From Promethearchaeota archaeon (lineage in GTDB: Archaea; Asgardarchaeota; Lokiarchaeia; Sigyniarchaeales; SOKP01), in the NCBI GenBank assembly GCA_048941285.1, contig JBHLNS010000016.1, positions 1 to 58,657 of the forward strand: 58,657 nucleotides of DNA, given 5' to 3'. The notes under the pieces are model-generated. The model was not told the DNA's origin. It was given only the letters and a program-made list of their open reading frames with translations, and did not search any database. Positions within the stretch are counted from its first letter, which is position 1; each line of letters starts with the position of its first letter. A program made the translations under genes and the position numbers. Shown piece after piece: positions 10,144 through 38,014 of the stretch.

Positions 10144-10860
10144 TTATAACTCTAATGCTTCAATCAATTTATCAATATTTTGTCCATTCTTAGCGCTAAT
10201 GGTTATTACTTTTATGTCCGGATTGAAATTCTTTGCATCTTTCATCATTTTTTCAATATTAGTTCCCAATCTTTCTAAGAGATCAATTTTGTTAATTACT
10301 GCGATATCAGACATTTTAAAAAGCATTGGATGTTTTTCAACAACCCACTCTCCCTCAGTAATCGAAACCACAGTCATTCTCTTATCTGTTCCGAGCTTAA
10401 AATCTGAAGGACAAATTAGATTACCTACATTTTCTATGAAAATCAAATTGTACTTGTTTAAGTCTTGATTCTTTAGAACTTGATGAATATGATATGCATT
10501 TAAAGCACATTCTCGCCCAGTATTTATCTGGATTGTTTTAACATTATGTTTTTCAATTCTATCTGCATCAACTCTAGTAGTAATATCGCCACAGATAACC
10601 AAGATTTTATATTTTTTTGATAATTTTTCGGCTATTTTTTCTAAAATTGCAGTCTTTCCTGCTCCAATCGCTCCTACAACATCTATAGATTTTATTCCCG
10701 TGTTATTTAGCTCTCTGTGTATTTGTTCTGCTAATAAATCGTTATCCTTTTCAACTTCTTTTTTTGTTTCTATAACAAGATCTCTGATTTCCTCTCTTGC
10801 TAAATTAATACTTTCAAGTTCTTTAATTCTTTGAAATTCTTGTTTTTTTTTATTCGTCAT
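10144..10860 (-). CDS. hypB: Hydrogenase nickel incorporation GTPase HypB
   Basis: GAIGAGKT, INTGRECAL, IENVGNLICPSDF.LG, SITEG, INKID. Confidence 0.9.
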   Translation of the reverse strand: MTNKKKQEFQRIKELESINLAREEIRDLVIETKKEVEKDNDLLAEQIHRELNNTGIKSIDVVGAIGAGKTAILEKIAEKLSKKYKILVICGDITTRVDADRIEKHNVKTIQINTGRECALNAYHIHQVLKNQDLNKYNLIFIENVGNLICPSDFKLGTDKRMTVVSITEGEWVVEKHPMLFKMSDIAVINKIDLLERLGTNIEKMMKDAKNFNPDIKVITISAKNGQNIDKLIEALEL

Positions 10861-19161: not shown

Positions 19162-19811
19162 AAGCCAACCCACCCCTTACACTTTTTTACTCCATCAATA
19201 GCATTTTTAGCCATGGCGTCTGCACCTATATCATCAACAAATTCTTGAGTTATAGGAGCCCCGCCAATAATTACTTTAAGTCCACTACGGAGATTAGCGT
19301 TTTTAAGTGCTTTCATTGTATTGCTAACCTCAGGCATTGTAATTGTTATTAAGGTTGAAATAGCGAGAATATCAGGTTTCTCTTTTCTCACACTCTCAAC
19401 AAATTTCTCTGGTGGAACGTCAACACCCAAATCAATCACCTCAAAGCCTTCAGCTTGAAGGAAAAAACTAACGATATTTTTTCCAATATCGTGCATATCA
19501 CTTTTAGCAGTGCCTATCACGATTTTTCCAATGCTTTTTTTCTTTCCAGAGCCTTTAATGTGAGGTTCTAAAACTTTCATGGCTTTTTTAACAATTTCTG
19601 CTGCCATGAATAGTTCAGGTAAAAAAAATTCTTCTTTTTCGAATTTATCTCCAACAATTTCTAAAGCCTTACTGATTGCGATTTCTATAAATTCATAAGG
19701 GTCTATTCCTTCAGTTATAGCCTTCTTAGTTGCCTCTTTAGCAGCTTTAATGTCCATATTAATAGCTGCTTTAATAAATTCTTCTGCAATTATCTCTTTT
19801 GTCATTTTCAT
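19158..19811 (-). CDS. Methyltransferase cognate corrinoid protein (MtaC/MtbC/MttC-like)
   Basis: B12 cap domain (FFLPELF.A) plus DMHDIGKNIV, DLGVDV, IIGGAP. Confidence 0.93.
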   Translation of the reverse strand: MKMTKEIIAEEFIKAAINMDIKAAKEATKKAITEGIDPYEFIEIAISKALEIVGDKFEKEEFFLPELFMAAEIVKKAMKVLEPHIKGSGKKKSIGKIVIGTAKSDMHDIGKNIVSFFLQAEGFEVIDLGVDVPPEKFVESVRKEKPDILAISTLITITMPEVSNTMKALKNANLRSGLKVIIGGAPITQEFVDDIGADAMAKNAIDGVKKCKGWVGL

Positions 19812-22979: not shown

Positions 22980-24602
22980 TTGGTATTAAAAATAAGTATA
23001 GAAATATCAAGTGAATCAAATATGGTTAATAAAGTAGTCCCTTATTTAATTAATATGGGTGAAGTGACTCCTGCACGAAGCCAAGCTGCTTTATTAAACG
23101 AGTTAGCAATGGGTTTAATTGATTGTATTAGTATATATGGTAAAAGTCTTAAAAAATTAGGTAAAATTTCAAAAATATCAACAGCCTTCTGGCCAGTTCG
23201 TTTAATACCATTAAGTGATACAAGAGCTTGTGTCTGTAGTTATCTCTTAAATAAACAAGAGAAATTAAGTGTAGGAGAATTTGCTCAAATGCCACCTAGA
23301 CCTGAAAATGTTATTAAAGGAGCAGATCCCGAATCCTTTTTAAGTTCATTGCAAATGTATAATAATACTTATTTAAGGCGTTTAAAAAACTTTAAACGCG
23401 GTACGGTAATACAAGAGGCGTTATTTAATGCAAATGAGGTAGGTTTTTTCCAGAATTTTTTCCTTAATCAATATGATTTAAGTTCTCATTCTACACCTTA
23501 TTTCTTATTAGAAGGAGGGCCCATTACTAAAAGTGTTAATCAGACTAAAATAGCACCAGAAATTCCTGTGTATGTATCACAGAAAGATGTTAAACTGCTT
23601 GATACATTCGGAGATGCCATTATAAAATTGTGTGAAAGATGGGTAGAAAAGGGTGGGAAAGAAGTAGATAAAATAAGAGATACTAAAGTAGATACTGGAG
23701 AAGAAGAGAAACAATTGGCAATACTAAATAAGGAAATCCAAGCAGAAAAAGAACGAGAAATTGAAAAATCTCCAGAAGAATTAGTGAAATTAGGAAAATA
23801 TAAAATAAATGATAAAACAGGAGAATTAGGCAACAATCTTAGCGCAATTAAAAATAGCGTTGATGGTTTGAAAAATGCCATTAATAATCGTGATCTATTT
23901 TTAGTAGAAGAAGGTTTAAAAGACATCAATGTGAAATATAGAGAATTAGGAGATTCCATCAATAGATATAATAATGAAATTGCCCAATTGAGAAAAAATG
24001 TTCAACGGGAAATCTCTGATCTCGAAAAAACAAGACAACAGAAAATCAGAGAGTTAGAACGTAAAAAGGCTGAGGTTGAAAAACAAATTGAAGCAAAACA
24101 CAGTGGTCTTAGCAAAGATCTAACTTCTGCAGAAGGTACTGTTGCTCAAATTAAATCTGAAAAACAAAATTCTTTAGCTAATATTGAATCTATTAAAGAT
24201 AAAGAGATGACTGATGTTCAAAATTTCTTTAATAATTACACACTTGAGATTAAGACTCAAAATGTCATTGTAGGTATCCCAATATATATATTCTTCTTTA
24301 TGGATCCTAATACAAACAGAACAACTGAAAGAGCTCCTGTGTTACCGATATTGATTGATAAGGGTAAAAAGGTGGAAACAAAAGTTAAATCTGGGTTCAG
24401 ACAAAAATTAAGAGATTTAATGAATAAAGACAATGCAATGATAGAATTAGTTGAAGCTCAATCCGATAAAAATAATTTGATGGAAACGAAAAATTTAGAC
24501 ACGCGTCTTGAGGATGCTATAAATGATTTACGGATTCGTAAAATTTTAAGTAAAAAGCAAGCTGAAACGGCAAAAGATATTATATCAAATCTTGTTTGGT
24601 AA
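22980..24602 (+). CDS. Hypothetical protein with a long central coiled coil
   Basis: Globular N- and C-termini flanking about 200 aa of heptad-like E/K-rich sequence. Start may be ATG 23022. Confidence 0.75.
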   Translation: MVLKISIEISSESNMVNKVVPYLINMGEVTPARSQAALLNELAMGLIDCISIYGKSLKKLGKISKISTAFWPVRLIPLSDTRACVCSYLLNKQEKLSVGEFAQMPPRPENVIKGADPESFLSSLQMYNNTYLRRLKNFKRGTVIQEALFNANEVGFFQNFFLNQYDLSSHSTPYFLLEGGPITKSVNQTKIAPEIPVYVSQKDVKLLDTFGDAIIKLCERWVEKGGKEVDKIRDTKVDTGEEEKQLAILNKEIQAEKEREIEKSPEELVKLGKYKINDKTGELGNNLSAIKNSVDGLKNAINNRDLFLVEEGLKDINVKYRELGDSINRYNNEIAQLRKNVQREISDLEKTRQQKIRELERKKAEVEKQIEAKHSGLSKDLTSAEGTVAQIKSEKQNSLANIESIKDKEMTDVQNFFNNYTLEIKTQNVIVGIPIYIFFFMDPNTNRTTERAPVLPILIDKGKKVETKVKSGFRQKLRDLMNKDNAMIELVEAQSDKNNLMETKNLDTRLEDAINDLRIRKILSKKQAETAKDIISNLVW

Positions 24603-25047: not shown

Positions 25048-26307
25048 TTGGCTGATAAATTAAATCTTAGCAACACATTCAGATTATATGAGGAAGCTTT
25101 AAATTTAATTCCAGGAGCAATTTTAGGGATAAGACGGCCCTATAATTTTATTGAGGGAGAATACCCAATATTCTTTGAATCTGCTAAGGGTGGAAAAGTA
25201 ATTGATGTAGATGGAAATGAATATATAGATATGTTATGCGCTTATGGGCCCATAATTATAGGACACAGAGAAGTAGAAATAGATAATGCTGTTATTGAAC
25301 AAATACGTAATAAGGGATTTTGTATGTCTTTAACTCAACAAGTACAAAACAAACTGGCTAAAAAGTTACGAGATTTGATACCTTGCTGTGAAAAGATGGT
25401 TTTAATGAAAATGGGCACAGATGCTACAACTGCAGCAATAAGAGTCGCTAGAGCATATACAAAAAAAATTAAAATACTTAGTTGTGGATACCATGGGTGG
25501 TATGACGCCTTCAGTGAGGTTCATGGAATTGAAACGGGAATACCAAAAAAACTATATGAGGATTTCTATGAATTTAAGTTTAATAGTCTAGAAGAGGTTG
25601 AAAATTTATTTAAAGCGAATAAAGATGAAATTGCAGCCATTATTATTAATCCAATACATACTCCTGGTGGCCGAGAGGTTGAAATGCCAAAGCTAGGATA
25701 CCTAGAAGGACTTCGTGAATTAGCAAATGATAATAATGCATTATTAATATTTGATGAGATAAGAACAGGCTTTAGAGTAGATATGGGTGGGGCTCAAAAA
25801 ATGTTTGGAGTTATTCCTGATCTAGCTGCTTTTGGTAAGGCTATGGGAAATGGTTACCCTATAAGTACTCTTGTTGGTAAAAAAGAATTTATGGATGTAT
25901 TAGTTGAAAAAGTATTTTTGAGTTCAACCTTTTTTCCTAATAGTCTTGCTCAGGTTGCTTCCCTAAAGACTATTGAAATTCTTGAAAAAGAAAATGTTCT
26001 AGAAAATATCCGTACAAAAGGAGATCAGTTTGCTAAAAGAATTAAAGAAAGTATAAATGATAATAATATTCCATGTAATTATTCTGGTGCGCCTTGGATG
26101 CCATATGTAACTTTTAAACCAGATAAAGATTATCTCTATAGAAAACTTAGAGAAGAATTCTATCGACAACTTATTCGAAGAAAAATATTTCTTCAACCCT
26201 TTCATCATGGTTATATTTGTCATCGTCATTCAGTTGAAGATATTGATTTTGCGGCAGATATGATTGACGAAGCCTTAAAGATAACAAAGCAATATTCTAA
26301 ATATTGA
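25048..26307 (+). CDS. kat: 3-aminobutyryl-CoA aminotransferase (class III PLP)
   Basis: GIRRPYNF..GEYPIFF, LCAYGPIIIG, FDEIR.GFR, FGKAM, VFLSSTFFPNS, APWMPY, QP.HHGYIC.RH match the Cloacimonas Kat as I recall it; first gene of the kce/kdd operon. Confidence 0.85.
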   Translation: MADKLNLSNTFRLYEEALNLIPGAILGIRRPYNFIEGEYPIFFESAKGGKVIDVDGNEYIDMLCAYGPIIIGHREVEIDNAVIEQIRNKGFCMSLTQQVQNKLAKKLRDLIPCCEKMVLMKMGTDATTAAIRVARAYTKKIKILSCGYHGWYDAFSEVHGIETGIPKKLYEDFYEFKFNSLEEVENLFKANKDEIAAIIINPIHTPGGREVEMPKLGYLEGLRELANDNNALLIFDEIRTGFRVDMGGAQKMFGVIPDLAAFGKAMGNGYPISTLVGKKEFMDVLVEKVFLSSTFFPNSLAQVASLKTIEILEKENVLENIRTKGDQFAKRIKESINDNNIPCNYSGAPWMPYVTFKPDKDYLYRKLREEFYRQLIRRKIFLQPFHHGYICHRHSVEDIDFAADMIDEALKITKQYSKY

Positions 26308-26326
26308 ATCTCAAAAAGTGTTTTTT

Positions 26327-27151
26327 ATGGAAAAATTAATTATTACAGCTGCTATATGTGGTGCAGAAGTCACAAAGGAACATAATCCACGTATTCCATA
26401 CACGATAGAAGAAATAGGAAATGAAGCAGAATCTGCTTATAGTGCAGGAGCTAGCATAATTCATTTACATGTTCGAGAAGATGATGGAACTCCTACGCAA
26501 GATAAGGAAAGATTTAGATTATGTATTGAAAAAATTAAATCAAAATGTCCAGATGCCATTATATTACCTTCTACTGGAGGAGCTGTTGGGATGACTAATG
26601 AAGAACGTCTTCAACCTATTTATTTAGAACCTGCTCCTGAAATGGCAACATTAGATTGTGGAACAATGAATTGGATTGGTGGCGACGAAATTTTTGTTAA
26701 TACTGAAAATACTATAATCAATTTTGCTGAAGAGATGAATAAACTTGGAATAAAATATGAACTTGAGTGTTTTGATAAAGGAATGGTTGATACAGCTTTA
26801 AGATTGCATGATAAAGGGTATATCAAAGATCCTATGCACTTTAATTTCATGTTAGGAATAAAGGGGGGAATAAATGCCACACCAAGAGATTTACTATTCT
26901 TAGTAAACAGTATTCCAAAAAACTCTACATATTGTGTTGGAGCGATTGGTAGGTATGAATTTCCAATGATTACATTATCAATAATAATGGGAGGACATGC
27001 TAGAGTTGGCTTTGAAGATAATATCTATCTATCTAAAGGGAAATTGGCAAAAACTAATGGAGAATTTGTAGAAAAAGTTGTAAGGATAGCTAATGAATTA
27101 GGAAGAGAAATCGCAAGTCCCTCTGAAACAAGAAAAATCTTAGGGCTGTAA
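26327..27151 (+). CDS. kce: 3-keto-5-aminohexanoate cleavage enzyme
   Basis: MEKLIITAAICGAEVTKE.NP, IHLHVR Zn site, PSTGGAVGMT.EER, GGHARVGFEDN. Confidence 0.95.
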   Translation: MEKLIITAAICGAEVTKEHNPRIPYTIEEIGNEAESAYSAGASIIHLHVREDDGTPTQDKERFRLCIEKIKSKCPDAIILPSTGGAVGMTNEERLQPIYLEPAPEMATLDCGTMNWIGGDEIFVNTENTIINFAEEMNKLGIKYELECFDKGMVDTALRLHDKGYIKDPMHFNFMLGIKGGINATPRDLLFLVNSIPKNSTYCVGAIGRYEFPMITLSIIMGGHARVGFEDNIYLSKGKLAKTNGEFVEKVVRIANELGREIASPSETRKILGL

Positions 27152-27179
27152 CTACAAAAATAAATAGGAGTATAATAAT

Positions 27180-27887
27180 ATGTATAAGAAATTAGCTAAT
27201 TATTATGATTTGATTTATTCATGGAAAGATTATAAGCGAGAAGTTAACAGGATCAAGAAATTAATTAAAAAATATAAAAATTCTACTGGTAATAATTTGC
27301 TTGATGTTGGTTGTGGAACTGGGAAGCATTTAAAATACTTAAAGGATGATTTTTCATGTACTGGATGTGATATTAATATCGAAATGATAGAGATTGCTAA
27401 ACAAAATATCAGAGATGTACTTTTCATTCAGGCTGATATGATAACCCTAGATCTAAAAAAAAAGTTCGATGTAATTCTAAGTTTGTTTAGTTCTATAGGG
27501 CATGTAAAAACATATAATAATTTAGAACAGACTATTCAAAACTTTTCTAATCATTTAAAAAGTGGAGGAGTTGTGATTATAGAACCATGGTTAACAAAAT
27601 CAACTTACGAACCCGGACGCCCTGGAATGACAACTTATGATGCAGAAGATATAAAAATTGCAAGGTTAAATACAACAAAAATCGAAGGTGATCTTTCAAT
27701 CTTAGAGATGCATTATTTAATATGCGAAAGAAATAAAGAATTGGAATATTTTTCTGAAAAACATGAACTAGGTCTTTTTGAGATAGATAAATTTTTAGAT
27801 TATATGAATAAAGCTGGATTAAAGTCAGAATTTTTAAAAGATGGTTTAATGAAAGACAGAGGGCTTTATATAGGCATAAAAATGTAG
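27180..27887 (+). CDS. SAM-dependent methyltransferase resembling TylM1/DesVI amine N-methyltransferases
   Basis: YDLIY..KDY..E, LLDVGCGTG.HL, FDV...FSSIGH, HL..GGV.IIEPW. Confidence 0.8.
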   Translation: MYKKLANYYDLIYSWKDYKREVNRIKKLIKKYKNSTGNNLLDVGCGTGKHLKYLKDDFSCTGCDINIEMIEIAKQNIRDVLFIQADMITLDLKKKFDVILSLFSSIGHVKTYNNLEQTIQNFSNHLKSGGVVIIEPWLTKSTYEPGRPGMTTYDAEDIKIARLNTTKIEGDLSILEMHYLICERNKELEYFSEKHELGLFEIDKFLDYMNKAGLKSEFLKDGLMKDRGLYIGIKM

Positions 27888-27915
27888 AATATTTTATAAA
27901 AAAAACCGTGATTTT

Positions 27916-28956
27916 ATGAAAAAAGGATCCAAATATGGTATTCACAGAGTAATTGAACCTATAGGGGCTTTACCTCAACCTGCAGTAAAAATATCAAATG
28001 ATATGGAAATCTTTGATAATGAAATATTAATAGATGTAGATTACTTGAATATTGATTCTGCTAGTTTTACCCAACTTAAAGAAGAAGCTAAAGGAGATAT
28101 AAAAAAAATCGAAAATAAAATATTAGAAATAGTCCAAGAAAAAGGAAAGATGCAAAATCCTGTGACGGGATCTGGAGGAATGTTAATAGGAAATGTAGAA
28201 AAAATTGGTGATGCTTTAAAAGATAGGATTGATCTGAAAATTGGAGAGAAGGTTGCAACCTTAGTATCTCTTTCATTAACACCACTTAGGATTGATAGAA
28301 TTAAAGCTATTTGGCCTGAGATTGATCGAGTAGATATCGAAGGAAAAGCTATTCTTTTTGAAAGTGGTATCTATGCTAAGCTTTCTGAAGATATGGAAGA
28401 TACATTGGCCTTAGCTGCTCTTGATGTCGCAGGAGCTCCTGCACAAGTGAAAAATCTCGTAAAAGAAGGGGATATTGTATTAATTCTTGGTGCTACTGGA
28501 AAATCGGGGTTAATGTGTTCCTATATGGCAAAGAAAATGGTAGGAGCAAACGGAAAAGTTATAGGTCAAGCTCGAAATGAATCACGTGCCAAATTTCTTA
28601 GAAATACAAATTTTTGTCATAAAGTTATAGTAGGGGATGTTCTAAAACCTATAAATATATTAGAAGAAACTTTAAATGCAAATTCTGGGAGAGAAGTTGA
28701 CATTTCAATAAACTGTTTAAGTATACCAAACACAGAAATGACTAGTATTCTTCCTGTTAGAGATGGAGGAGTTGTTTATTTTTTTTCAATGGCAACTAGT
28801 TTTACTAAAGCAGCTTTAGGTGCTGAAGGTGTCGGAAAAGATGTAACTATGATTATTGGCAATGGTTACACTAAAAACCATGCACAGATTACCTTAGATT
28901 TATTAAAAGAATCAGATGTATTAAGAAAGATTTTTGAAGAAAAATACATGAAATAA
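27916..28956 (+). CDS. kdd: L-erythro-3,5-diaminohexanoate dehydrogenase
   Basis: KYG.HRVIEP.G.LPQPA, LNIDSASF, GKMQNPVTGSGGM, ALDVAGAPAQ, FFSMATSFTKAALGAEG. Confidence 0.95.
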   Translation: MKKGSKYGIHRVIEPIGALPQPAVKISNDMEIFDNEILIDVDYLNIDSASFTQLKEEAKGDIKKIENKILEIVQEKGKMQNPVTGSGGMLIGNVEKIGDALKDRIDLKIGEKVATLVSLSLTPLRIDRIKAIWPEIDRVDIEGKAILFESGIYAKLSEDMEDTLALAALDVAGAPAQVKNLVKEGDIVLILGATGKSGLMCSYMAKKMVGANGKVIGQARNESRAKFLRNTNFCHKVIVGDVLKPINILEETLNANSGREVDISINCLSIPNTEMTSILPVRDGGVVYFFSMATSFTKAALGAEGVGKDVTMIIGNGYTKNHAQITLDLLKESDVLRKIFEEKYMK

Positions 28957-28967
28957 TTTGAAATAAG

Positions 28968-29975
28968 TTAGTACCCTTCATCCAGATTAACTATGTTTTC
29001 TGGTTTTTCACCACGAATAAACCTATTTACATTTTCAAGAAAAGGTTTAAGATCTGTCATTAATGCATCCGATTGCCATGCTCTATGTGCTGTCATTATA
29101 ACGTTTTTTAACGTATGAAAGGGAAATTTTGAAGGATAGCATGGAAAAGGTTCTTGTTTTTCGCCACCTCTAATATCTGGATAATTATACCAAACATCCA
29201 AAGCGGCTCCTCTAATCTTCTTGTCATTTAAAGCATTATATAACTCTTGTTCATTAATAGTCATACCACGACCAACATTAACGATGATTACATTTGGTTT
29301 CATAACTTCAAATTCAGTTTTATCAACAAAATTTATTGTCTTTTTAGTTAGGGGAAGAGTATTAATGACAATATCAGCTTGTTTAATAGCTGTTAGGCGT
29401 TCTTCAGGTGGAAATATCTTAATGCTAGGATCATTGCATTGTTTAGTCCTTTTAACTGCAATATAGTTCATTTGGAACGGTTTACACATTTCTTTTAAAG
29501 TTTGTGCGATATTTCCATACGCTAGAAATAAAATCGTTTTCCTAAATAAAGTAATTGATGGATATTTTGTATAATCCCAATTACCTTCTCTGAGAAGTTG
29601 ATCATTTGTGTTTATTTGTTTAGCAATAGAAATTAATAGAGCAAATGCATATTCAGCAATTATTTTAGAATGCGTGTGAGAATTACAGAGAATTATGTTC
29701 TTTTTTTTATAAAAATCAAAGTTAAAAATTTCTAAACCTGTCGCGAATGTTTGATGCATTTTTAAATTATTGTATAAGCTTAATTCTTTATCTTCTATTT
29801 TAGGACCAATTAATACATCGATTTCCTTAAGAATTTGTTCTCTCTCTTGCTCTTTAATATCATTATAAAAGATTAAATCTACATTTGGGTCTATCAATTG
29901 CTTATATGTGTTTTTCATATGTTCTTTCGATAAAAGGGATTCAATCTCTGCTCTGGGTTTTATAAGTACTTTCAT
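28968..29975 (-). CDS. D-isomer-specific 2-hydroxyacid dehydrogenase family
   Basis: AYGNIA Rossmann variant, LPLT..T, VNVGRG, AALDVW, TAHRA. Confidence 0.88.
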   Translation of the reverse strand: MKVLIKPRAEIESLLSKEHMKNTYKQLIDPNVDLIFYNDIKEQEREQILKEIDVLIGPKIEDKELSLYNNLKMHQTFATGLEIFNFDFYKKKNIILCNSHTHSKIIAEYAFALLISIAKQINTNDQLLREGNWDYTKYPSITLFRKTILFLAYGNIAQTLKEMCKPFQMNYIAVKRTKQCNDPSIKIFPPEERLTAIKQADIVINTLPLTKKTINFVDKTEFEVMKPNVIIVNVGRGMTINEQELYNALNDKKIRGAALDVWYNYPDIRGGEKQEPFPCYPSKFPFHTLKNVIMTAHRAWQSDALMTDLKPFLENVNRFIRGEKPENIVNLDEGY

Positions 29976-30133
29976 GATATTATTTAATATTGAATTTATA
30001 TAAATATTTGAAGAAAGATATTGAAATATTGATTTATCAGAAAGAATTTTTGTGTGTTTATTCTTTGTTTAAACTAAATTAGACCAATTCAAAGAATCAA
30101 AAATCCTATGTTCAAAAATTCCGCTAGATTTTT

Positions 30134-30565
30134 CTACTCATTTTCACAATAACAATTGTTAGAGCTTAAAATTGTATCTCCACACGGGCATTCTGAGGGA
30201 TGGCTATACTTTTCACAAATTTTATTAATTGTATTACAAGAGAATAATAAATTAAATTTCTCACTTTCTACATGAGCTTCTTCAGCACTTAGCTCTAATT
30301 CACTGTATAGTAATATTTCTAACAATTGTGCGTGGCGTATTAATTCTTTTGCTAAATCTGAACCCCTTTCTGTCAATTTAAGAGGATTATATCTAACCCA
30401 TTTAACGAATTCTTTTTTCTCAAGTCTCTCAATAGAACTATTAATCGTTGATAATGGAATTTTAATATCTTTAGTTACTTTAATTTCTTCTTGAATATGT
30501 TTTAAACGTGCATTTCCATTAGTTCTATAAATAATCTTTAAAATTTGATAATCTATATCCAACAT
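30134..30565 (-). CDS. DtxR/MntR-like metal-dependent transcriptional regulator (divergent, Cys-rich)
   Basis: Winged HTH, Y..L.LT.RG..LA...R.....LE, EEAH, P..CP.G; downstream of the ZIP gene. Confidence 0.8.
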   Translation of the reverse strand: MLDIDYQILKIIYRTNGNARLKHIQEEIKVTKDIKIPLSTINSSIERLEKKEFVKWVRYNPLKLTERGSDLAKELIRHAQLLEILLYSELELSAEEAHVESEKFNLLFSCNTINKICEKYSHPSECPCGDTILSSNNCYCENE

Positions 30566-30584
30566 GATTGATTATAACTAATTA

Positions 30585-31343
30585 TTAATGAGTATGCCCT
30601 CCTACAGTTAGAACTAAAACCATTACAATAATCCCTATAACTATTAAAACTATTTGTTTAATTATTTCTTTTGTTTCTGTTTTTTCGTGAAGTTGGGGTG
30701 TTAAATCTGACAATGCAATATAGAGAAAACTTGCTGCTGAAATTGCCAAAAAAAGCGGAATAATCGTTTCGAATGCATCCAAAATGAAATAACTAATAAT
30801 TGCGGCGGGAATTGTAGCAGAACTTGATAGTAAATTATATAAAAGTGCTCGTTTCTTTGACATTCCATTATGTAGTAATATTGCAAAATCGCCTGTTTCT
30901 TGAGGGACTTCATGCATAATTATCGTAATGCCAGCGGCCAAACCAAGTCCAAAATTATTAGTAAGAAAAGCTGCTGCTATTACAATTCCATCAGTGAAGT
31001 TATGAAATGCATCACCAATTAATATTAAAGGTCCAGGTGCTTGAGAATGAATTTCACATTCATTATTTTGACAATTTCTCCATATTAGGAATTTTTCTAA
31101 AAAGAAGAAAAAGAGCAATCCCCCTAAAATTACTATTGTTACTAGATGCGGTTCTCCAGCACTCTCAATAGCTTCAGGAATTAAACCCATTAATGCAGAT
31201 GTCAGTAAAGTTCCTGTTGCGAACGAAATTAATCCTGTAACTATTTTTTTTTGAATTCTTTCACCTATTAGAAGGAAAAGTGAAGCAGCTAGTATTGCAC
31301 CTACACTTCCCAAAATGCTAAACAAGACAATCCAAAATAACAA
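30585..31343 (-). CDS. ZIP family metal transporter
   Basis: SFATGTLL, LIPEA, GDAFHNFTDG, HEVPQETGD, FLYIALSDL.P.LH. Start reassigned from 31439 to TTG 31343 because GAGGT (31354-31358) and the promoter lie inside the longer ORF. Confidence 0.92.
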   Translation of the reverse strand: MLFWIVLFSILGSVGAILAASLFLLIGERIQKKIVTGLISFATGTLLTSALMGLIPEAIESAGEPHLVTIVILGGLLFFFFLEKFLIWRNCQNNECEIHSQAPGPLILIGDAFHNFTDGIVIAAAFLTNNFGLGLAAGITIIMHEVPQETGDFAILLHNGMSKKRALLYNLLSSSATIPAAIISYFILDAFETIIPLFLAISAASFLYIALSDLTPQLHEKTETKEIIKQIVLIVIGIIVMVLVLTVGGHTH

Positions 31344-31377
31344 TAAAATTAATACCTCTATATTTATTCTTTTAAGA

Positions 31378-31416
31378 TTTACGAATGATCGTAAATTATT
31401 TACGAATATTCGTAAT
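31378..31416. promoter_or_regulatory. Tandem palindromic operator (TTTACGAATGATCGTAAA and TTTACGAATATTCGTAAT)
   Basis: Two 18-bp inverted repeats (31378-31395 and 31399-31416) spaced 21 bp apart, between the TATA box and the ZIP start. Confidence 0.8.
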
Positions 31417-31422
31417 TTATGA

Positions 31423-31436
31423 TATTTAAACTTTTG
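31423..31436 (-). promoter_or_regulatory. Archaeal BRE-TATA promoter of the ZIP-DtxR operon
   Basis: Minus strand reads CAAAAG-TTTAAATA, a canonical BRE/TATA arrangement, immediately upstream of the operator. Confidence 0.65.
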
Positions 31437-31644
31437 CATAATATAGGTTAAATTTATTTAAATAATGAATAATTATGTTATCGATTCTTTCCAAATTAAA
31501 AAGGTGGGCAATACTCAAGAAGATTAATCTTTTATAATATTCTTTTATATATTGAGAGTTATAAAAACCTAAAAATTACAAAAAATATTTGAAGAAACAC
31601 ACTTTTATTCAATTGTTAAGTTATAATAAAAATTATAAATAACA

Positions 31645-32895
31645 TTGAGTTTTACTATGAAAGTCAATAGACGAAAAGAATTATTTGGACATATAAGTGA
31701 TGAGGATTGGAAAGATTGGCGCTGGCAAGTTAAAAATAGGATAACAACCTTAGAAGAACTCAAAAAATATATCACTTTAACTAAAGAGGAAGATGATCCT
31801 AGAATCTTACAAGAATATCGAATGGCTATTACACCCTATTATTTATCATTAATTGATCCAAATGATCCATATGATCCTATTAGAAAGCAAGCTATTCCAA
31901 CAACTCAAGAGTTGGAGAGATATATAGGTGAGCTCGAAGATCCGTTAAGTGAAGATATTGATTCACCAATCGAAGGATTGACCCATCGCTATCCTGACAG
32001 AGTATTATTTTTAGTTACTGAAGTCTGTTCGATGTATTGCAGACATTGTACAAGGAGAAGATTTGCTGGACACCATGATATGGCCCCTCCACAAGCACAA
32101 ATAGATGGTTGTATTGAATATATAAAGAACACTCCTTCTATTAGGGATGTCTTATTATCTGGAGGTGATGCTTTATTAATATCTGATAAGAAATTAGAAG
32201 ATATTTTAATAAAACTAAAACAAATTCCCCATGTTGAAATAATCCGAATTGGGTCTAGAACACCAGTTACAAATCCTTTTCGCATTACTCCAGAGTTATG
32301 TGATATTTTAAAAAAGTATCATCCTATATGGTTTAATACACATTTTAATCATCCTAATGAAATTACAGAAGATTCTACTAGGGCTTGTGAAATGTTAGCT
32401 AACTCTGGGATTCCTCTTGGTAATCAATCTGTTTTATTGAGAGGTATAAACGATTGTATTCATGTTATGAAAAAATTAGTGCAAGAGTTAGTAAGAATAA
32501 GAGTTAGACCATATTACATTTATCAATGTGATTTATCTATCGGATTAGGGCATTTTCGTACGAGTGTAGCTCAAGGTATTGAAATCATTGAAGGCCTACG
32601 GGGCCATACTTCTGGTCTTTGTGTTCCTACTTTTGTCGTAGATGCACCAGGAGGTGGAGGAAAAATTCCTGTAATGCCCGATTACACAATTTCTCAAGGA
32701 CATAAGCGAGTAGTCTTAAGAAATTTTGAAGGGGTAATTACAACTTATGAAGAACCAGTAGATTATACACCAAATTGTCATTGTGAAGATTGCGAAAAGC
32801 AAATTGGAGTAAGTGCATTACTAAGTGGTGAAAAGACTACGATAGAACCAGCAGATCTAAAAAGAAAACTAAGAAGGAAAAAACTCACAAAATAA
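31645..32895 (+). CDS. kamA: L-lysine 2,3-aminomutase (radical SAM, PLP)
   Basis: WKDWRWQ..NRI, THRYPDR, CSMYCRHCTRRR, GGGGKIP (PLP Lys), C-terminal CHCEDC Zn site. Confidence 0.97.
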   Translation: MSFTMKVNRRKELFGHISDEDWKDWRWQVKNRITTLEELKKYITLTKEEDDPRILQEYRMAITPYYLSLIDPNDPYDPIRKQAIPTTQELERYIGELEDPLSEDIDSPIEGLTHRYPDRVLFLVTEVCSMYCRHCTRRRFAGHHDMAPPQAQIDGCIEYIKNTPSIRDVLLSGGDALLISDKKLEDILIKLKQIPHVEIIRIGSRTPVTNPFRITPELCDILKKYHPIWFNTHFNHPNEITEDSTRACEMLANSGIPLGNQSVLLRGINDCIHVMKKLVQELVRIRVRPYYIYQCDLSIGLGHFRTSVAQGIEIIEGLRGHTSGLCVPTFVVDAPGGGGKIPVMPDYTISQGHKRVVLRNFEGVITTYEEPVDYTPNCHCEDCEKQIGVSALLSGEKTTIEPADLKRKLRRKKLTK

Positions 32896-32964
32896 TTCTA
32901 AAATTTAAATAAGTTACTTTTATTTAGGTTATTAACTAATAAACTAATAGTTTTTGGCGAGAAA

Positions 32965-33996
32965 ATGGACTTTATGACCAATTTTCTAAATAATATCACT
33001 AAATACTCTGTTGTATCGATAATAGGTCTTGCAAAAAACGTTAGTAAAACTACTACATTAAACTATATTATAAAAAATTTAAAAGATTATAAGCTTGGGC
33101 TGACCTCTATAGGAAGAGATGGAGAAAAATATGATGTTATCACCCAGTTGCCAAAACCTCGAATATATATCAAAAAAGGTACTATTGTAGCAACAGCTAG
33201 ACAAAGTTATGAATCAAGCGAAGTTGAAATGGAACTGTTAAAAACCACTGAATTTACTACTCCATTAGGTGAAGTTTTAATATTAAAAGCCTTAAGTGAT
33301 GGTTTAGTTGAACTGGCTGGTCCATCAACAAATACAACTTTGAAAAAATTATGTCTAGAATTACTAGATTTAGGATGTGATTTAATTCTAATTGATGGTG
33401 CATTTGATAGAAGATCATATGCAACACCTATTATATCTGATGCTAGTATCCTTTCTACAGGAGCTTCTGTATCGGAAAATATGCAAAATGTGATTAATTT
33501 AACAGTTCATACAATTAATTTATTAAATTTACCAAGTGAGAAAAATAAAGAAATTATAGAAATTGCTTATGATATAATTAAAAAAGCAAAAGTAGGAGTA
33601 ATCGATAATCAAAATTCTATAAAATTATTACATGTACCAACTCCTTTAGATGCTGCAAAAGAAATATCTGAAAACTTAGAGGAAAACTCTACTTATGTTA
33701 TAATAAATGGCGCAATCACTAACAAATTATTAGAAAATTTAATGAAGTTGACAGAAAAATACAAAGGAGTGACATTTTTAGTGGAAGATAGTACAAAGAT
33801 TTTCTTAAGTAAAACTATAATGGAAAAATTCCAAAAAAAAGGCGGAATTATAAAAGTTTTACATCCTATTAAAGTTATAGCGGTTACTATTAACCCAACT
33901 TCTCCATTAGGGTATCAATTTGAAAAAAGCGATTTCATTAATTTAATGAAGAAAAATCTCAATATTCCTGTATATGATCTTGGACCAGGTAATTAA
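32965..33996 (+). CDS. kamB: Lysine 5,6-aminomutase reactivase subunit KamB-like
   Basis: SIIGLAKN..KT..LN, TSIGRDGE..D....KP.I, TPLGEV, IDGA.DR, ILSTGA, VTINP.SP; lies between kamA and kamD. Confidence 0.8.
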   Translation: MDFMTNFLNNITKYSVVSIIGLAKNVSKTTTLNYIIKNLKDYKLGLTSIGRDGEKYDVITQLPKPRIYIKKGTIVATARQSYESSEVEMELLKTTEFTTPLGEVLILKALSDGLVELAGPSTNTTLKKLCLELLDLGCDLILIDGAFDRRSYATPIISDASILSTGASVSENMQNVINLTVHTINLLNLPSEKNKEIIEIAYDIIKKAKVGVIDNQNSIKLLHVPTPLDAAKEISENLEENSTYVIINGAITNKLLENLMKLTEKYKGVTFLVEDSTKIFLSKTIMEKFQKKGGIIKVLHPIKVIAVTINPTSPLGYQFEKSDFINLMKKNLNIPVYDLGPGN

Positions 33997-34037
33997 AATA
34001 ATATAAATTTGGGAAAAATGTATAAAAGATTAAGATT

Positions 34038-35636
34038 GTGAAAAAAATGGCTAAAGAATTAAGCAATTCAGAAAGTAAATTGAATTTAGATTATTCATTG
34101 GTAAGAAACGCGAGGGAAAAAGCAAAAAAAATTGCATTAGAAACTCAAAAATTTATAAATTTACATACTACTACAACTATAGAAAGAACGGTTTGTAGAT
34201 TACTTGGAATAGATGGCATTGATGAATTTGATGTACCTCTTCCTAATATAGTTGTGAATCATTTAAATAAGAAAAATCTTCTTGGAATCGGTGCTGCAAT
34301 TCAAATTGGTAATGCTATATTACATACAAAACTTACACCTCAAAAAATTGCAGAAAAAATTGCTAAAAACGAGTTAGACTTGGAAAAATTATCAATGAAA
34401 GAATTATCTAAAATTAAAGCAACTATCAATATCATTGCTCAAGAAACTTTAGTTAAAATATCTCAGAACAAGAAAAAACGAGAAACATTACTTCTTAAAT
34501 ATGGCGATAAGGAGGAACCATTGATATATGTTATTGTAGCTACAGGAAACATTTATGAAGATATAATACAAGCTCAAGCAGCAGCGAGACAAGGTGCAGA
34601 TGTCATTGCTGTAATAAGATCCACAGTACAAAGCCTTCTTGATTATGTACCATATGGTCCCACAACAGAAGGATTTGGGGGAACATATGCTACTCAAGAA
34701 AATTTTAAAATAATGAGAAAAGCATTAGACGAAGTAAGTGAAGAATTAGGGAGATATATCAGACTTACTAATTACTGTTCGGGTTTATGTATGCCAGAAA
34801 TTGCTGTTATGGGTGCTTTTGAAAGGCTTGATATGATGCTTAATGATGCACTATATGGTATTTTATTTCGAGATATAAATATGAAACGCACGATTATAGA
34901 TCAACATTTTTCAAGAATGATAAATGCTTATGCTGGTGTTCTCATTAATACCGGTGAAGATAATTACCTCACTACCGCTGATGCTTATGAAGCAGCACAC
35001 ACAGTATTAGCCTCTGAATTTATAAACGAACAATTTGCGCTACTAGCAGGTTTAAAAGAAGAACAAATGGGATTAGGACATGCCTTTGAAATGAATCCAG
35101 ATTTAGAAAATGGTTTTCTATATGAACTTGCTCAAGCCCAAATGGCAAGAGAGATTTTTCCTAATGCTCCTCTCAAATATATGCCTCCAACCAAATATAT
35201 GACTGGTAATATATTTAAAGGGCATATTCAAGACGCTCTTTTTAATATGATTACAATTATGACTAATCAAAGAATCCATCTCCTTGGAATGTTAACAGAA
35301 GCAATACATACTCCTTTTATGTCAGATCGAGCTTTATCTATTGAAAACGCGCGGTACATTTTTAAAAATATGAAATCCATCAGTAAAGAAATTGAATTCA
35401 AAAAAGGGGGATTAATGGAAAAACGAGTTGATGAAGTCCTAAACAAAGCTTATAGCTTATTAAAAGAGATTGAAAGCTTAGGATTATTCAAAACAATTGA
35501 AAAAGGAATCTTCGCGAATATAAAAAGATCTATGGATGGTGGCAAGGGATTAGAAGGAGTGATTAAGAAAGAGAAAGAATACTATAATCCATTTATGGAA
35601 CTCATGAATAGTGAATTAAAAAAGGGGGGTAATTAA
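34038..35636 (+). CDS. kamD: Beta-lysine/D-lysine 5,6-aminomutase alpha subunit
   Basis: ESKLNLD, ERTVCRLLGIDG, YVIVATGNIYED, NYCSGLCMPEIA, KYMPPTK.MTG. Confidence 0.97.
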   Translation: MKKMAKELSNSESKLNLDYSLVRNAREKAKKIALETQKFINLHTTTTIERTVCRLLGIDGIDEFDVPLPNIVVNHLNKKNLLGIGAAIQIGNAILHTKLTPQKIAEKIAKNELDLEKLSMKELSKIKATINIIAQETLVKISQNKKKRETLLLKYGDKEEPLIYVIVATGNIYEDIIQAQAAARQGADVIAVIRSTVQSLLDYVPYGPTTEGFGGTYATQENFKIMRKALDEVSEELGRYIRLTNYCSGLCMPEIAVMGAFERLDMMLNDALYGILFRDINMKRTIIDQHFSRMINAYAGVLINTGEDNYLTTADAYEAAHTVLASEFINEQFALLAGLKEEQMGLGHAFEMNPDLENGFLYELAQAQMAREIFPNAPLKYMPPTKYMTGNIFKGHIQDALFNMITIMTNQRIHLLGMLTEAIHTPFMSDRALSIENARYIFKNMKSISKEIEFKKGGLMEKRVDEVLNKAYSLLKEIESLGLFKTIEKGIFANIKRSMDGGKGLEGVIKKEKEYYNPFMELMNSELKKGGN

Positions 35637-35637
35637 A

Positions 35638-36426
35638 ATGGGAGGAGGTTTATATTCAACTGACAAAGAAACTTATAATAAGAATCTTGATTTGACTAAA
35701 ATTAAACCTTACGGAGATACGATGAATGATGGGAAAGTACAAATCAGTTTCACTCTTCCGATAGATCAAAGCGAAAAGGCAGTTGTAGCAGCGAAAGAAA
35801 TTGCAAACAAAATGGGATTAAAAGATCCAGAAGTCGTTTATCATAAAAAATTGGATAAGAATTTTACTTTTTTTGTGATATATGGTAAGTTAATCCATAC
35901 AATTGATTACACTAAAGTGAAAGTAGAGACAATAGAAGTCGAAATTAGGTCTAAAGAAGAAATTAATAGTTATATCAAAGAAAAAATCAAAAGAGAAATA
36001 GTTGTACTTGGTGCCTCTACGGGAACAGATGCTCACACAGTAGGGATTGATGCTATCATTAATATGAAAGGATTTGCTGGACATTATGGCCTTGAGAATT
36101 ATGAAATGATCAAAGCTTTTAATTTAGGAAGCCAAGTAACAAATGAAGAATTTATTAAAAAAGCAATAGAACTGAACGCCGATGTTTTGCTAGTTTCACA
36201 AACAGTTACTCAGAAAGATATTCATGTTAAAAACCTGACTCAATTAGTTGATCTATTGGAAGCAGAAAAAATAAGAGACAGTGTGATCCTTATTTGTGGT
36301 GGAGCAAGAATAAACAATGAACTAGCGAAAGAATTAGGATACGATGCTGGTTTTGGGCCTGGGACTTACGCTGAAATTGTAGCATCCTTTTTTATACAAC
36401 AAATTGTTAATAGAAAGCTTTTTTGA
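35638..36426 (+). CDS. kamE: Beta-lysine/D-lysine 5,6-aminomutase beta subunit (AdoCbl, PLP)
   Basis: KPYGDTMNDGKVQ.SFTLP, TDAHTVGIDAI (base-off His), MKGFAGHYG (PLP Lys), GYDAGFG. Confidence 0.97.
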   Translation: MGGGLYSTDKETYNKNLDLTKIKPYGDTMNDGKVQISFTLPIDQSEKAVVAAKEIANKMGLKDPEVVYHKKLDKNFTFFVIYGKLIHTIDYTKVKVETIEVEIRSKEEINSYIKEKIKREIVVLGASTGTDAHTVGIDAIINMKGFAGHYGLENYEMIKAFNLGSQVTNEEFIKKAIELNADVLLVSQTVTQKDIHVKNLTQLVDLLEAEKIRDSVILICGGARINNELAKELGYDAGFGPGTYAEIVASFFIQQIVNRKLF

Positions 36427-36672
36427 TTACTTCGTAAATTCTTTCATTACCATATGAGTATTAGACCTTGTGATTCCATCAATCATATCTATTTTATTTG
36501 CAAATATCTCATATAATTCTTCAGGTGACTCTACTATAATTTCTGCTAAAGCATCATAATCCCCTGTTAAAGACATAACTTTAGTGATTTGAGGTATTTT
36601 TTTCAATTCTTCAATAACAGGTTTTATGACACTAATCCCTAATTTGCATAAAATAATTGCTTTGATTGTCAT
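36427..36672 (-). CDS. Stand-alone Lrp/AsnC ligand-binding (RAM) domain protein
   Basis: MTIKAIILC...IPQI..V..LTGDYD...I..IDGI..SNT; no HTH. Start set to ATG 36672. Confidence 0.85.
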   Translation of the reverse strand: MTIKAIILCKLGISVIKPVIEELKKIPQITKVMSLTGDYDALAEIIVESPEELYEIFANKIDMIDGITRSNTHMVMKEFTK

Positions 36673-36694
36673 AACACATATCGTCTCATAATTA

Positions 36695-38014
36695 TTAAGT
36701 TGGGGTTTTCTCAATTTTATTAATAAATAAAATTTGAATATCTTTAATTTCATTTAAAGGTTTTAATCTTAAATTTATAAGGTTATAAAAATCTTTTATA
36801 GAACTTATTTTTACATTTAACAGCAAATCATGAGTTCCCACTAACGTATATATAGAATTAATTCCATAATACTTGAAGATACGTAAAGTAATTTTATTAA
36901 AAGAACCTTTTTTCAATTTTATTAGCAGAACCGCTTTAACTAAATTCTTTACTTCATGTGAATATCTAACCACGAATGTAAAAACTAATAAAAATATAAC
37001 AATAATTAAAAATTCGAGAGGAAAAAATTCATTTACAAAAATTACTGAAAAAATAATTGATCCCATAGGATCTATTAGGTTTAAAATACTACTCCACTGA
37101 CTATAAGTTAAATTCTCAGATTTCCAATTGACATTTGCTATAAAGACTAAAAGATATGGAATAATTGTTGAAAAAATAATTAAAAAAATAATCTCCCATC
37201 TACCAAGAATTAAAAAAATACTACTGAATTGAGTAAAAAAAGTTGCTATCTCATAAGTTAAATCAGTTTCAAAAGGTATAATATAAATAATCAAAACAAC
37301 TGGAATCATGCAAATTACTCCTATTAAAAAAGAAAAAGACATTTTAAGAAGAAATCGAGGGATTTTATAATTCTTATTTTGATTAATTATTTTTATTTCT
37401 TCAGATGAATATGCATCTCTATTAATTACTATATAGAGAAATGAAATTGCTATGCTGAAAATTAATAAATAAACTATGCCATTTAACATTACAGGACTAC
37501 CCTCTAATGCTGCACCTGTACTTCCTACAAATATCAAAATTGTGATTGTAAAAAATAAAAGAATAACATAAAGTACCTTAAATATATCAAACTTTTCAAA
37601 ATTCACACCATTTTCGTAAAAGGCAATAAATATAACACTTAAAAGAAAACCAACCATTGTGAATGTAATTGAAGTAGTCTTTAATGTTAAAAAGAAAAAA
37701 ATAATATTGAGAATTATCCCAAAAAAGCCTAAATATAGGTAATATGAGATATTTTTTAAGTCAAAAAATCTTCTATTTTTATGAAATAAATTATTAAATA
37801 GAAATCTTAACGATATAGATTCATTTTTAGATAACCTATTATTTATTAGTACAAGAATAATAGCTAGAATTAGCAATGCCAATCCAGAGACTAAAAATCT
37901 TAGAAAAATAACCATAATAATGGATACTTCTAAAAACAAGTCCTCTACAACAACAGGAATAAAACCCCACAGTAAATTTGCCAAAACTATATTAATTAAT
38001 AGCTTGTTTTTCAT
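36695..38014 (-). CDS. EamA/DMT family transporter fused to a C-terminal Lrp/AsnC (RAM) domain
   Basis: LLWG..P, FLRF, IIP, DP..SII..VIF.NE across about 10 TMs, then KAVLLIKL...IYTLVGTHDLLLNV. Confidence 0.75.
   Translation of the reverse strand: MKNKLLINIVLANLLWGFIPVVVEDLFLEVSIIMVIFLRFLVSGLALLILAIILVLINNRLSKNESISLRFLFNNLFHKNRRFFDLKNISYYLYLGFFGIILNIIFFFLTLKTTSITFTMVGFLLSVIFIAFYENGVNFEKFDIFKVLYVILLFFTITILIFVGSTGAALEGSPVMLNGIVYLLIFSIAISFLYIVINRDAYSSEEIKIINQNKNYKIPRFLLKMSFSFLIGVICMIPVVLIIYIIPFETDLTYEIATFFTQFSSIFLILGRWEIIFLIIFSTIIPYLLVFIANVNWKSENLTYSQWSSILNLIDPMGSIIFSVIFVNEFFPLEFLIIVIFLLVFTFVVRYSHEVKNLVKAVLLIKLKKGSFNKITLRIFKYYGINSIYTLVGTHDLLLNVKISSIKDFYNLINLRLKPLNEIKDIQILFINKIEKTPT

Follow-up and report, generated by a model that had tools for sequence, protein, structure and literature searches.

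Two ways of consuming 3-aminobutyryl-coenzyme A (CoA) during lysine fermentation have been described in bacteria. In the canonical clusters of Fusobacterium nucleatum and Clostridium sticklandii, as recounted in the accessible parts of Perret et al. 2011 (PMC3149608), five core steps lead from lysine to 3-aminobutyryl-CoA, and Kal, crotonyl-CoA reduction and a butyrate:acetoacetate CoA-transferase then complete a redox-balanced pathway whose product is butyrate. The same parts of that paper describe Kat as a class-III enzyme resembling HemL, which forms acetoacetyl-CoA from 3-aminobutyryl-CoA and 2-oxoglutarate; its activity was measured for a Cloacimonas enzyme and for an enzyme from a digester Bacteroidetes, which are ~65% identical to each other. 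Kat is reported there from organisms in which kal is missing, and in the Bacteroidetes contig it occupies the kal locus itself. The Kal route is also on record for an Asgard archaeon, as the accessible part of Supplementary Table 4 of Imachi et al. 2020 (PMC7015854) lists, under ‘Lysine degradation’ in strain MK-D1, the genes kamA, kamD, kamE, kdd, kce and kal together with a CoA transferase, enoyl-CoA hydratase, butyryl-CoA dehydrogenase and Etf, each with expression values. Here we analyse a 58,657-nucleotide stretch of DNA (the window) that makes up an entire contig (JBHLNS010000016.1) of a Promethearchaeota archaeon (assembly GCA_048941285.1), and describe within it, at positions 25048-36426, a lysine-fermentation cluster that begins with a candidate Kat. 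We consider it probable (roughly 0.8) that the cluster is functional and has come down to this Asgard archaeon by vertical inheritance; its enzyme activities, flux and end products are what we infer from the genes.

The seven cluster genes, which an earlier note on this DNA had placed on one strand in the order known from bacteria, were confirmed at their coordinates by the open reading frame (ORF) map, and all are on the plus strand. Genes were called by Pfam and NCBIfam profile searches using the curated NCBIfam cut-offs, which six of the seven exceed. The first gene encodes the Kat candidate, a class-III pyridoxal 5'-phosphate (PLP) aminotransferase predicted to be a 3-aminobutyryl-CoA:2-oxoglutarate aminotransferase, EC 2.6.1.111 (25048-26307; PF00202, 198 bits). 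It is followed after 10 b by Kce (26318-27151; NF052387, 425.6 bits vs 382; PF05853, 350.7 bits), and then by Kdd, the dehydrogenase of L-erythro-3,5-diaminohexanoate (27916-28956; NF052381, 268.1 bits vs 200), the radical S-adenosylmethionine (SAM) enzyme lysine 2,3-aminomutase KamA (31645-32895; TIGR03820, 603.1 bits vs 525.4; PF12544 and PF04055), the reactivase subunit of lysine 5,6-aminomutase KamB (32965-33996; NF052386, 405.7 bits vs 210), KamD (34038-35636; NF052384, 920.5 bits vs 600; PF09043, 897 bits) and KamE (35638-36426; NF052385, 395.7 bits vs 280; PF16554 and PF02310). A SAM-dependent methyltransferase gene (27180-27887, plus strand; Methyltransf_25/11/23) lies between kce and kdd, and three minus-strand genes divide the cluster into a kat-kce-methyltransferase-kdd block and a kamA-kamB-kamD-kamE block, with gaps of 1-69 b inside each block. 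The gene order, kat-kce-kdd-kamA-kamB-(kamC)-kamD-kamE, is the same as in the Bacteroidota and Riflebacteria loci L047, L052 and L042. The note's description of a complete core cluster therefore stands for genes and order, but it had passed over both the interruptions and KamC.

When set beside the described systems, the locus resembles that of ‘Candidatus Cloacamonas acidaminovorans’ and the digester Bacteroidetes, in which, according to the accessible parts of PMC3149608, a HemL-like class-III aminotransferase likewise replaces kal next to the core genes kamA, kamDE, kdd and kce. As in the Asgard cluster, the kat gene of the digester Bacteroidetes contig is at the kal locus, and in L047 and L052, both from Bacteroidota, the genes run kat-kce-kdd-kamA-kamB-kamC-kamD-kamE. 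The present system differs in its archaeal host and in its 60-62% identity to homologues from those phyla; moreover, its cluster is without KamC, contains the methyltransferase gene and the three unrelated opposite-strand genes as insertions, and has atoAD and thiolase outside it. MK-D1 belongs to the same phylum and has the same kamA, kamD, kamE, kdd and kce, with a MutS2-like gene and a hypothetical gene separating kamD from kamA. As far as the accessible part of its table goes, however, its route continues through kal (3-aminobutyryl-CoA ammonia-lyase), enoyl-CoA hydratase, butyryl-CoA dehydrogenase and Etf to butyrate with no Kat. With the canonical F. nucleatum and C. sticklandii clusters, the window has in common the five core steps but not the Kal branch.

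The proposed pathway takes its chemistry from the established functions of the enzymes (Perret et al. 2011, PMC3149608). KamA would convert lysine to beta-lysine, which would become 3,5-diaminohexanoate through the action of KamDE, an enzyme dependent on adenosylcobalamin (AdoCbl) and PLP that would be aided by KamB alone. Kdd would then form 3-keto-5-aminohexanoate and yield NAD(P)H, and Kce would combine this product with acetyl-CoA to give acetoacetate and 3-aminobutyryl-CoA, from which the HemL-like Kat, using 2-oxoglutarate, would produce acetoacetyl-CoA and glutamate. The remaining steps could be carried out by enzymes encoded elsewhere in the genome, for which candidates are present: three ELFV (Glu/Leu/Phe/Val-type) dehydrogenases, which we take as glutamate dehydrogenases, a CoA-transferase pair (contig C64:81400-83136), nine thiolase matches and, for an ADP-forming acetyl-CoA synthetase, three ACD-type ATP-grasp genes. 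It also has a CobA-type adenosyltransferase as a candidate for AdoCbl supply, while no PduO-type adenosyltransferase was found in it. The earlier note had suggested acetate rather than butyrate as the end point, but the genome carries two pairs of EtfAB genes as well, together with 3-hydroxyacyl-CoA dehydrogenases and genes resembling those of acyl-CoA dehydrogenases, and judging from these butyrate could still be formed; butyrate formation was considered for Cloacimonas too in the accessible parts of PMC3149608. The 3-hydroxyacyl-CoA dehydrogenase gene at 10926, which had been suggested to act downstream, showed nothing that links it to the cluster. In two other genomes of the phylum, G162 and G234 (genus g11), a 3-oxoacid CoA-transferase A/B pair is located within the cluster itself, between kce and kdd (L023:9019-10794 and L116), as it is in the Bacteroidota loci L043 and L044.

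The reading of the first gene as kat, already proposed in the earlier note, is upheld by its placement in the Kat family, by the failure to find Kal and HemA in the genome, and by the mutual exclusion of Kat and Kal, which occupy the same slot in sister genomes. Among 1.84 billion 50%-cluster representatives, a single full-length one, P0121, is more than 50% identical to the Kat candidate (54%, 513 bits), and the next reaches 42% and 317 bits; the JGI name of P0121 is 3-aminobutanoyl-CoA transaminase. In the homologue search started from P0121, Syntrophales-type relatives fill the matches listed, and Cloacimonas is not among these listed matches. A scan of GTDB species genomes with the Kat alignment returned at least 80 loci; 40 of those listed share 52% or more of their residues with P0121, and for the others the figure is 42% at most. 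Lysine genes lie alongside 22 of these 40 listed Kat-family loci, and Riflebacteria, Bacteroidota, Bdellovibrio, Elusimicrobia, Treponema, Spirochaetales and Bacillota are represented among the 22. The Kat candidate is 60-63% identical to the proteins of Ca. Syntrophosphaera (L045), Cloacimonadota (L049), digester Bacteroidota (L047 and L052) and a Bdellovibrio. In the Kat tree, a clade with starred support of 98 unites the Asgard sequences with those of Cloacimonadota, Bacteroidota, Bdellovibrionota and Elusimicrobiota, and a starred branch (99) splits the Kat family from an outgroup that contains two further HemL-like paralogues of the source genome. All invariant columns of alignment A1 are present in the candidate, including the G-K column at 262-263 (first-sequence numbering), whose lysine we take to be the PLP-binding residue. 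The genome-wide search for kal that the note had called for agrees with this reading: no Kal match was found anywhere in the 94%-complete genome, and the Kal-Kce fusion model was matched by the Kce half only. Likewise, Kal had no match in any of five bacterial genomes carrying Kat (5/5).

The distribution of Kat and Kal was compared across the phylum. All counts refer to one 301-genome sample of the phylum that includes the source genome. KamD was detected in 48 of the 301 genomes, all in two families of a single order, f1 (41/68 plus the source genome) and f2 (6/7); the remaining 28 families, sampled with 225 genomes, yielded no KamD. Matches to the window's Kat (E <= 1e-100) occur in 33 genomes, in f1 and f2 only, and Kal exceeds its curated cut-off in 17 genomes, which likewise belong to f1 and f2. 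The 48 KamD-positive genomes fall into 29 with Kat only, 16 with Kal only, none with both, and three with neither, which are 84-90% complete; indeed, no genome in the whole sample has Kat and Kal together. Five genomes with Kat or Kal gave no KamD match, yet all five have Kdd above its cut-off, and the missing KamD therefore looks like an assembly break. The alternation extends below the family level, as genera g1 (13 Kat/3 Kal), g3 (1/2) and g4 (14/9) contain both types. Among the 33 Asgard loci that were mapped (20 Kat, 13 Kal), either enzyme is encoded by the first gene of the cluster, ahead of kce and usually directly so. Of the evidence gathered here, this either-or occupancy of one and the same slot argues most strongly that Kat takes the place of Kal in consuming 3-aminobutyryl-CoA. 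It constitutes strong comparative evidence for Kat as a functional replacement of Kal, for which there were previously two bacterial enzymes only.

A pair of genomes from genus g3 shows how sharply the slot is delimited. The Kat-type locus of G144 and the Kal-type locus of G040 share ~91% DNA identity on both flanks; their homology stops 42 b beyond the upstream gene and restarts exactly at the kce start codon. The swapped piece measures 2,272 b in G144, where it holds kat and a DUF5615 ORF, and 711 b in G040, where it holds kal. Kal ORFs of the mapped loci exceed the NF052388 cut-off (194 and 186 bits vs 160). In G144, the ORF of 124 aa that separates kat from kce (L021:11490-11864) was considered as a remnant of Kal and rejected, as it is a DUF5615 protein and its BLASTP comparison gave E = 31. 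The DUF5615 (PIN-like) family of this ORF hints that mobile toxin-antitoxin-like genes may travel with the cassette. Exchange of the slot appears to have recurred. A six-gene tree was built from Kce, Kdd, KamA, KamB, KamD and KamE (26 rows from Asgard archaea and 8 from bacteria, all of loci that hold at least three of the six), and on it six Kat/Kal changes are needed among the 26 Asgard rows, at least four of them forced by starred branches. Moreover, the Kats of genus g11, a member of f2, nest within the f1 Kats (starred support of 99), whereas the other six genes of g11 branch outside f1 (starred support of 100), and Kat has therefore moved within the order.

These observations lead us to a broader proposal, which we offer tentatively and regard as rather less than an even bet: that the first operon slot is an exchangeable Kat/Kal cassette in one Asgard order, and that it acts as a switch, making lysine fermentation either self-contained or dependent on a syntrophic partner. 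The cassette would be bounded by the kce start codon, as in the mapped swap, and sibling species even within one genus differ in it. With Kal, crotonyl-CoA reduction would give a redox-balanced butyrate fermentation; with Kat, and with glutamate dehydrogenase regenerating the 2-oxoglutarate, extra reducing equivalents would arise and have to leave the cell as H2 or formate. The Kat route would thus need an external electron sink, which fits syntrophy, and, if the proposal is true, the cassette would be a genomic marker of partner dependence in Asgard archaea. The Kat-or-Kal pattern in itself supports the function of Kat and suggests a redox or lifestyle switch.

Several observations weigh against the reading of the cluster as a working Kat-type pathway of old standing. 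For KamC, the ATPase that pairs with KamB, no match in the source genome exceeds the cut-off (best match 215 bits vs 300, to a 952-aa MutS-like frame), and KamB would have to reactivate KamDE alone. The CoA-transferase pair of the source genome is just 33-35% identical to the pair inside the G162 cluster. The three opposite-strand genes interrupt the cluster, which must therefore comprise at least two transcription units. Membership of the Kat family by itself leaves the substrate unfixed: 18 of the 40 listed Kat-family loci, 17 of them with a Kat ORF, have no lysine gene within the <=10 kb inspected per side (less on short contigs), and they belong mostly to Syntrophaceae, Syntrophorhabdales and Desulfomonile, together with two Cloacimonadota and one Bacteroidales. 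Strain NaphS2 likewise has a Kat homologue with no lysine genes nearby, according to the accessible parts of PMC3149608. The assignment as Kat rests, in addition, on homologues from the phyla of the two characterised enzymes (CLOAM0809 and DIG1_60031), and so has to be read as a prediction. Finally, all trees were ‘quick’ searches with SH-aLRT support only and partial bacterial sampling, and the KamD tree (72 rows, 50 of them bacterial) is unrooted and was computed without a mixture model.

The alternative that fares best is that Kat works in some wider or other metabolism of beta-aminoacyl-CoAs, acting for example on the products of the other three BKACE proteins, with Kam, Kdd and Kce supplying one substrate among others; we judge this unlikely. 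It draws on the activity of Kat towards beta-homoleucyl and beta-phenylalanyl thioester mimics (accessible parts of PMC3149608), on the four BKACE and three HemL-like paralogues of the source genome, and on the many bacterial Kat homologues that have no lysine genes nearby. However, the kat gene is immediately adjacent to kce, Kat and Kal exclude each other and both go with the KamD/Kdd cluster, and the other BKACE paralogues have different neighbours of their own. These three Kce-family paralogues are located at C1:7086-7988, C35:11934-12986 and C92:31073-31879 of the source genome; the first is found beside thiolase-like and acyl-CoA dehydrogenase-like genes, the second beside a 3-hydroxyacyl-CoA dehydrogenase gene, and the third beside genes for a PfkB kinase, an SDR protein and a GFO/IDH oxidoreductase.

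It is much less probable that the gene beside kce encodes a genuine HemL, a glutamate-1-semialdehyde 2,1-aminomutase engaged in making tetrapyrroles or corrins, and lies there by chance. The resemblance behind this idea is genuine, as the best NCBIfam matches of the Kat candidate are HemL models, no Kat model is among the best 25 of its 70 NCBIfam matches, and JGI labels many of its homologues glutamate-1-semialdehyde aminotransferase. No solved Kat structure was found, and its best PDB matches are GSAM structures of the same fold class (3bs8 and 2gsa, ~200 bits). The candidate nevertheless scores below every curated HemL cut-off (NF000818, its best, 277.5 vs 398; TIGR00713, 271.9 vs 527.3), falls in the Kat clade, outside the HemL-like outgroup, and alternates with Kal in one slot. 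A HemA partner was also not found in the genome, where the best match reached 24 bits against a cut-off of 209.55. The possibility that a HemL/GSA enzyme would undo the lysine reading, raised in the earlier note, is thus disfavoured, and it follows from the Kat assignment that ‘HemL’ annotations in Asgard genomes may not mean tetrapyrrole synthesis. As to the remaining HemL-like paralogues, one (C30:51643-54076, equivalent to L006:4644-7077; 292 bits to hemL, below the cut-off) adjoins a 2,4-diaminopentanoate dehydrogenase-like gene (PF19328), and the two genes may form an ornithine-fermentation-type pair with an unusual aminotransferase; the other is at C59:33196-34602.

The cluster was probably acquired from bacteria once, in the ancestor of one Asgard order, and its first slot would since have been exchanged repeatedly between Kat and Kal. 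Operon-scale transfer from bacteria to that ancestor is the most economical reading, because the Asgard sequences nest in bacterial trees, the gene order is shared, and the cluster is restricted to one Asgard order; its direction is deduced from quick trees that are unrooted or rooted on few bacteria. In the KamD tree, the Asgard rows form three groups; a Riflebacteria bin and one genome of a Bacillota bin's phylum (74% identical) join them in a larger group (support 86) of unresolved branching. This larger group is located inside clades of Bacteroidota, Spirochaetota and Bacillota (starred supports of 96 and 95), and the Cloacimonadota form a separate clade. KamD is found in 47/251 sampled genomes of that Bacillota bin's phylum, in 2/201 Bacteroidota and in 55/81 Cloacimonadota. 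The f2 order, kat-kce-kdd-kamA-kamB-kamC-kamD-kamE, matches that of Bacteroidota and Riflebacteria loci. KamC is encoded between kamB and kamD only in the f2 genus g10 (L020:12815-14413, 484 bits; L024:11786-13363, 465 bits), and the clusters of f1 and g11 are without it; after the transfer, KamC would have been lost in f1 and g11, insertions would have occurred at several junctions, and Kat and Kal would have been exchanged.

An operon-scale transfer had been proposed in the earlier note as well, and the bacterial ancestry and shared gene order agree with that proposal, but the evidence points to old, order-wide inheritance and not to an event in this genome. A recent, direct acquisition of a Kat-type operon from Cloacimonadota or Firmicutes by this genome or a very recent ancestor is, accordingly, a highly doubtful alternative, although the Kat and KamD trees do place the Asgard rows among bacteria and the gene order is identical to that of bacterial loci. 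The cluster is present in most sampled members of both families, and the transfer appears to be old since the composition of the genes has been equalised and Kat identity within the order drops to 61-65%. In the six-gene tree, the Asgard rows are on one side (starred support of 97) and the eight bacterial rows, all from Kat-type loci, on the other, and monophyly of the Asgard Kats is compatible with the data (p-AU 0.457). Cloacimonadota, which the note had named with Firmicutes as expected relatives, are not the nearest neighbours in KamD; these are the Riflebacteria bin and the Bacillota-phylum genome.

The contig itself is Asgard. It belongs to a 3.55-Mb genome of 101 contigs with an estimated completeness of 94.1% and an estimated contamination of 3.39%. 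Its GC content is even (~0.26-0.35 per 2-kb step, mean 0.308), and the cluster genes (0.26-0.34) do not depart from it. Ras-family small GTPases are typical eukaryote-like genes of Asgard archaea, and two are encoded on the contig (PF00071; 1335-1865 and 3449-3997, both on the minus strand), as is an archaea-only hypothetical gene. A third Ras-family GTPase of the genome, 397 aa with an N-terminal extension, is at C90:4257-5450; the PF00071 scores of the three range over 149-168 bits. The best 120 of 7,026 aminotransferase homologues are 70-88% identical to the Kat candidate; 30 of these 120 carry an organism name, and 29 of the 30 are labelled archaeal, nearly all Asgard (metagenome-assembled genomes of Promethearchaeota, Lokiarchaeota, Thor-, Heimdall-, Odin- and Hodarchaeota). 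One of the 120 is already labelled ‘3-aminobutyryl-CoA aminotransferase’. The cluster and its flanks recur in 33 Asgard loci, whose contigs include one of 4.36 Mb (a single-contig genome), one of 913 kb and one of 528 kb. The stretch is present in public sediment metagenomes, and contig pieces of run X1 with zero differences bridge the kat/kce, kce/methyltransferase, methyltransferase/kdd and kamD/kamE junctions, although X1 is possibly the window's own sample and these Logan pieces are short, none spanning the entire cluster; no RNA run is among the public runs listed for the stretch. Despite the bacterial affinity of the nearest non-Asgard relatives of every gene and the contamination estimate of the bin, a misassembled or mis-binned bacterial fragment, against which the even GC, the archaeal marker genes, the recurrent layout, the archaeal homologues and the bridged junctions all speak, is excluded for practical purposes. 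The Asgard host suspected in the earlier note is thus confirmed, by the GTPases, the archaeal homologues and the one-order distribution of KamD.

Cultured Asgard members live by syntrophic amino-acid degradation, and cultures and enrichments of this Asgard order exist. Which amino acids such archaea ferment, and how they balance their redox reactions, bears on models of the archaeal partner in eukaryogenesis. In the literature, we found no report that names Kat in archaea or describes the Kat/Kal alternation, although supplements of other Asgard papers and preprints could hold Kat annotations. Nor did we find a main-text report of Asgard lysine fermentation; the sole record found is Supplementary Table 4 of Imachi et al. 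2020, the word lysine does not occur in the main text of that paper (PMC7015854), and the accessible part of the 2024 species description of MK-D1 refers to ten amino-acid degradation pathways. The table suffices to correct the assumption, made in the earlier note, that the pathway is characterised in bacteria only. Asgard lysine fermentation by the Kal route is therefore already on record, and what is new here is the archaeal Kat-type cluster and the strict Kat-or-Kal pattern among sibling species. The MK-D1 reconstruction contains only the Kal route, whereas in the sampled order Kat-type clusters outnumber Kal-type clusters by 29 to 16.

Among the genes inserted into the cluster, the methyltransferase gene is variable. 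Thirty Asgard loci have kce together with kdd, and 15 of them, some of Kat type and some of Kal type, contain it, whereas it is present neither in f2 loci nor in the bacterial loci compared; it is likely a passenger. The three minus-strand insertions encode a D-isomer-specific 2-hydroxyacid dehydrogenase (28968-29975; PF02826, 140.4 bits), a DtxR/MntR-family metal regulator (30134-30565; PF02742, 54.4 bits) and a ZIP-family metal transporter (30585-31439; PF02535, 119.3 bits). At the place of the dehydrogenase, a 335-aa minus-strand ORF occurs in L106, L109, L113 and L115, and L019 has counterparts of the regulator (93% identical) and the transporter (87% identical). Upstream of the cluster, the gene up540 (22980-24602, plus strand) encodes a soluble, Lys/Glu/Leu-rich protein of 540 aa with no Pfam or NCBIfam family and no transmembrane-like segment, and it precedes Kat or Kal in 19 of the 33 Asgard loci. 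Its neighbours in the protein atlas are unnamed archaeal clusters only (Promethearchaeota, Bathyarchaeota and Thermoproteota). A role for up540 as a transporter or pathway enzyme was rejected on these grounds, and the protein probably stands outside the pathway.

Downstream, a 108-aa protein with an Lrp/AsnC ligand-binding domain (36427-36753, minus strand; PF01037, 59.6 bits) is encoded convergently with kamE, and next to it is an EamA-type transporter with a C-terminal AsnC-type ligand-binding domain (36695-38014, minus strand; PF00892, 34.2 bits; PF01037, 24.4 bits). Both genes converge with kamE and are conserved in loci of the same genus: L019 has counterparts of the AsnC-domain protein (94% identical) and of the transporter (88% identical), and L106 has an ORF of 439 aa in the position of the transporter. 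From its domain, the 108-aa protein is a possible amino-acid-sensing regulator, and together the two proteins may form an amino-acid-sensing export or uptake module. Elsewhere on the contig, a corrinoid protein with B12-binding and B12-binding_2 domains is encoded beside a URO-D-like methyltransferase (18016-19811, minus strand), and a CobW/MeaB-like GTPase is encoded at 10144-10860 (minus strand); by their families, these three genes point to a putative second B12-dependent system on the contig.

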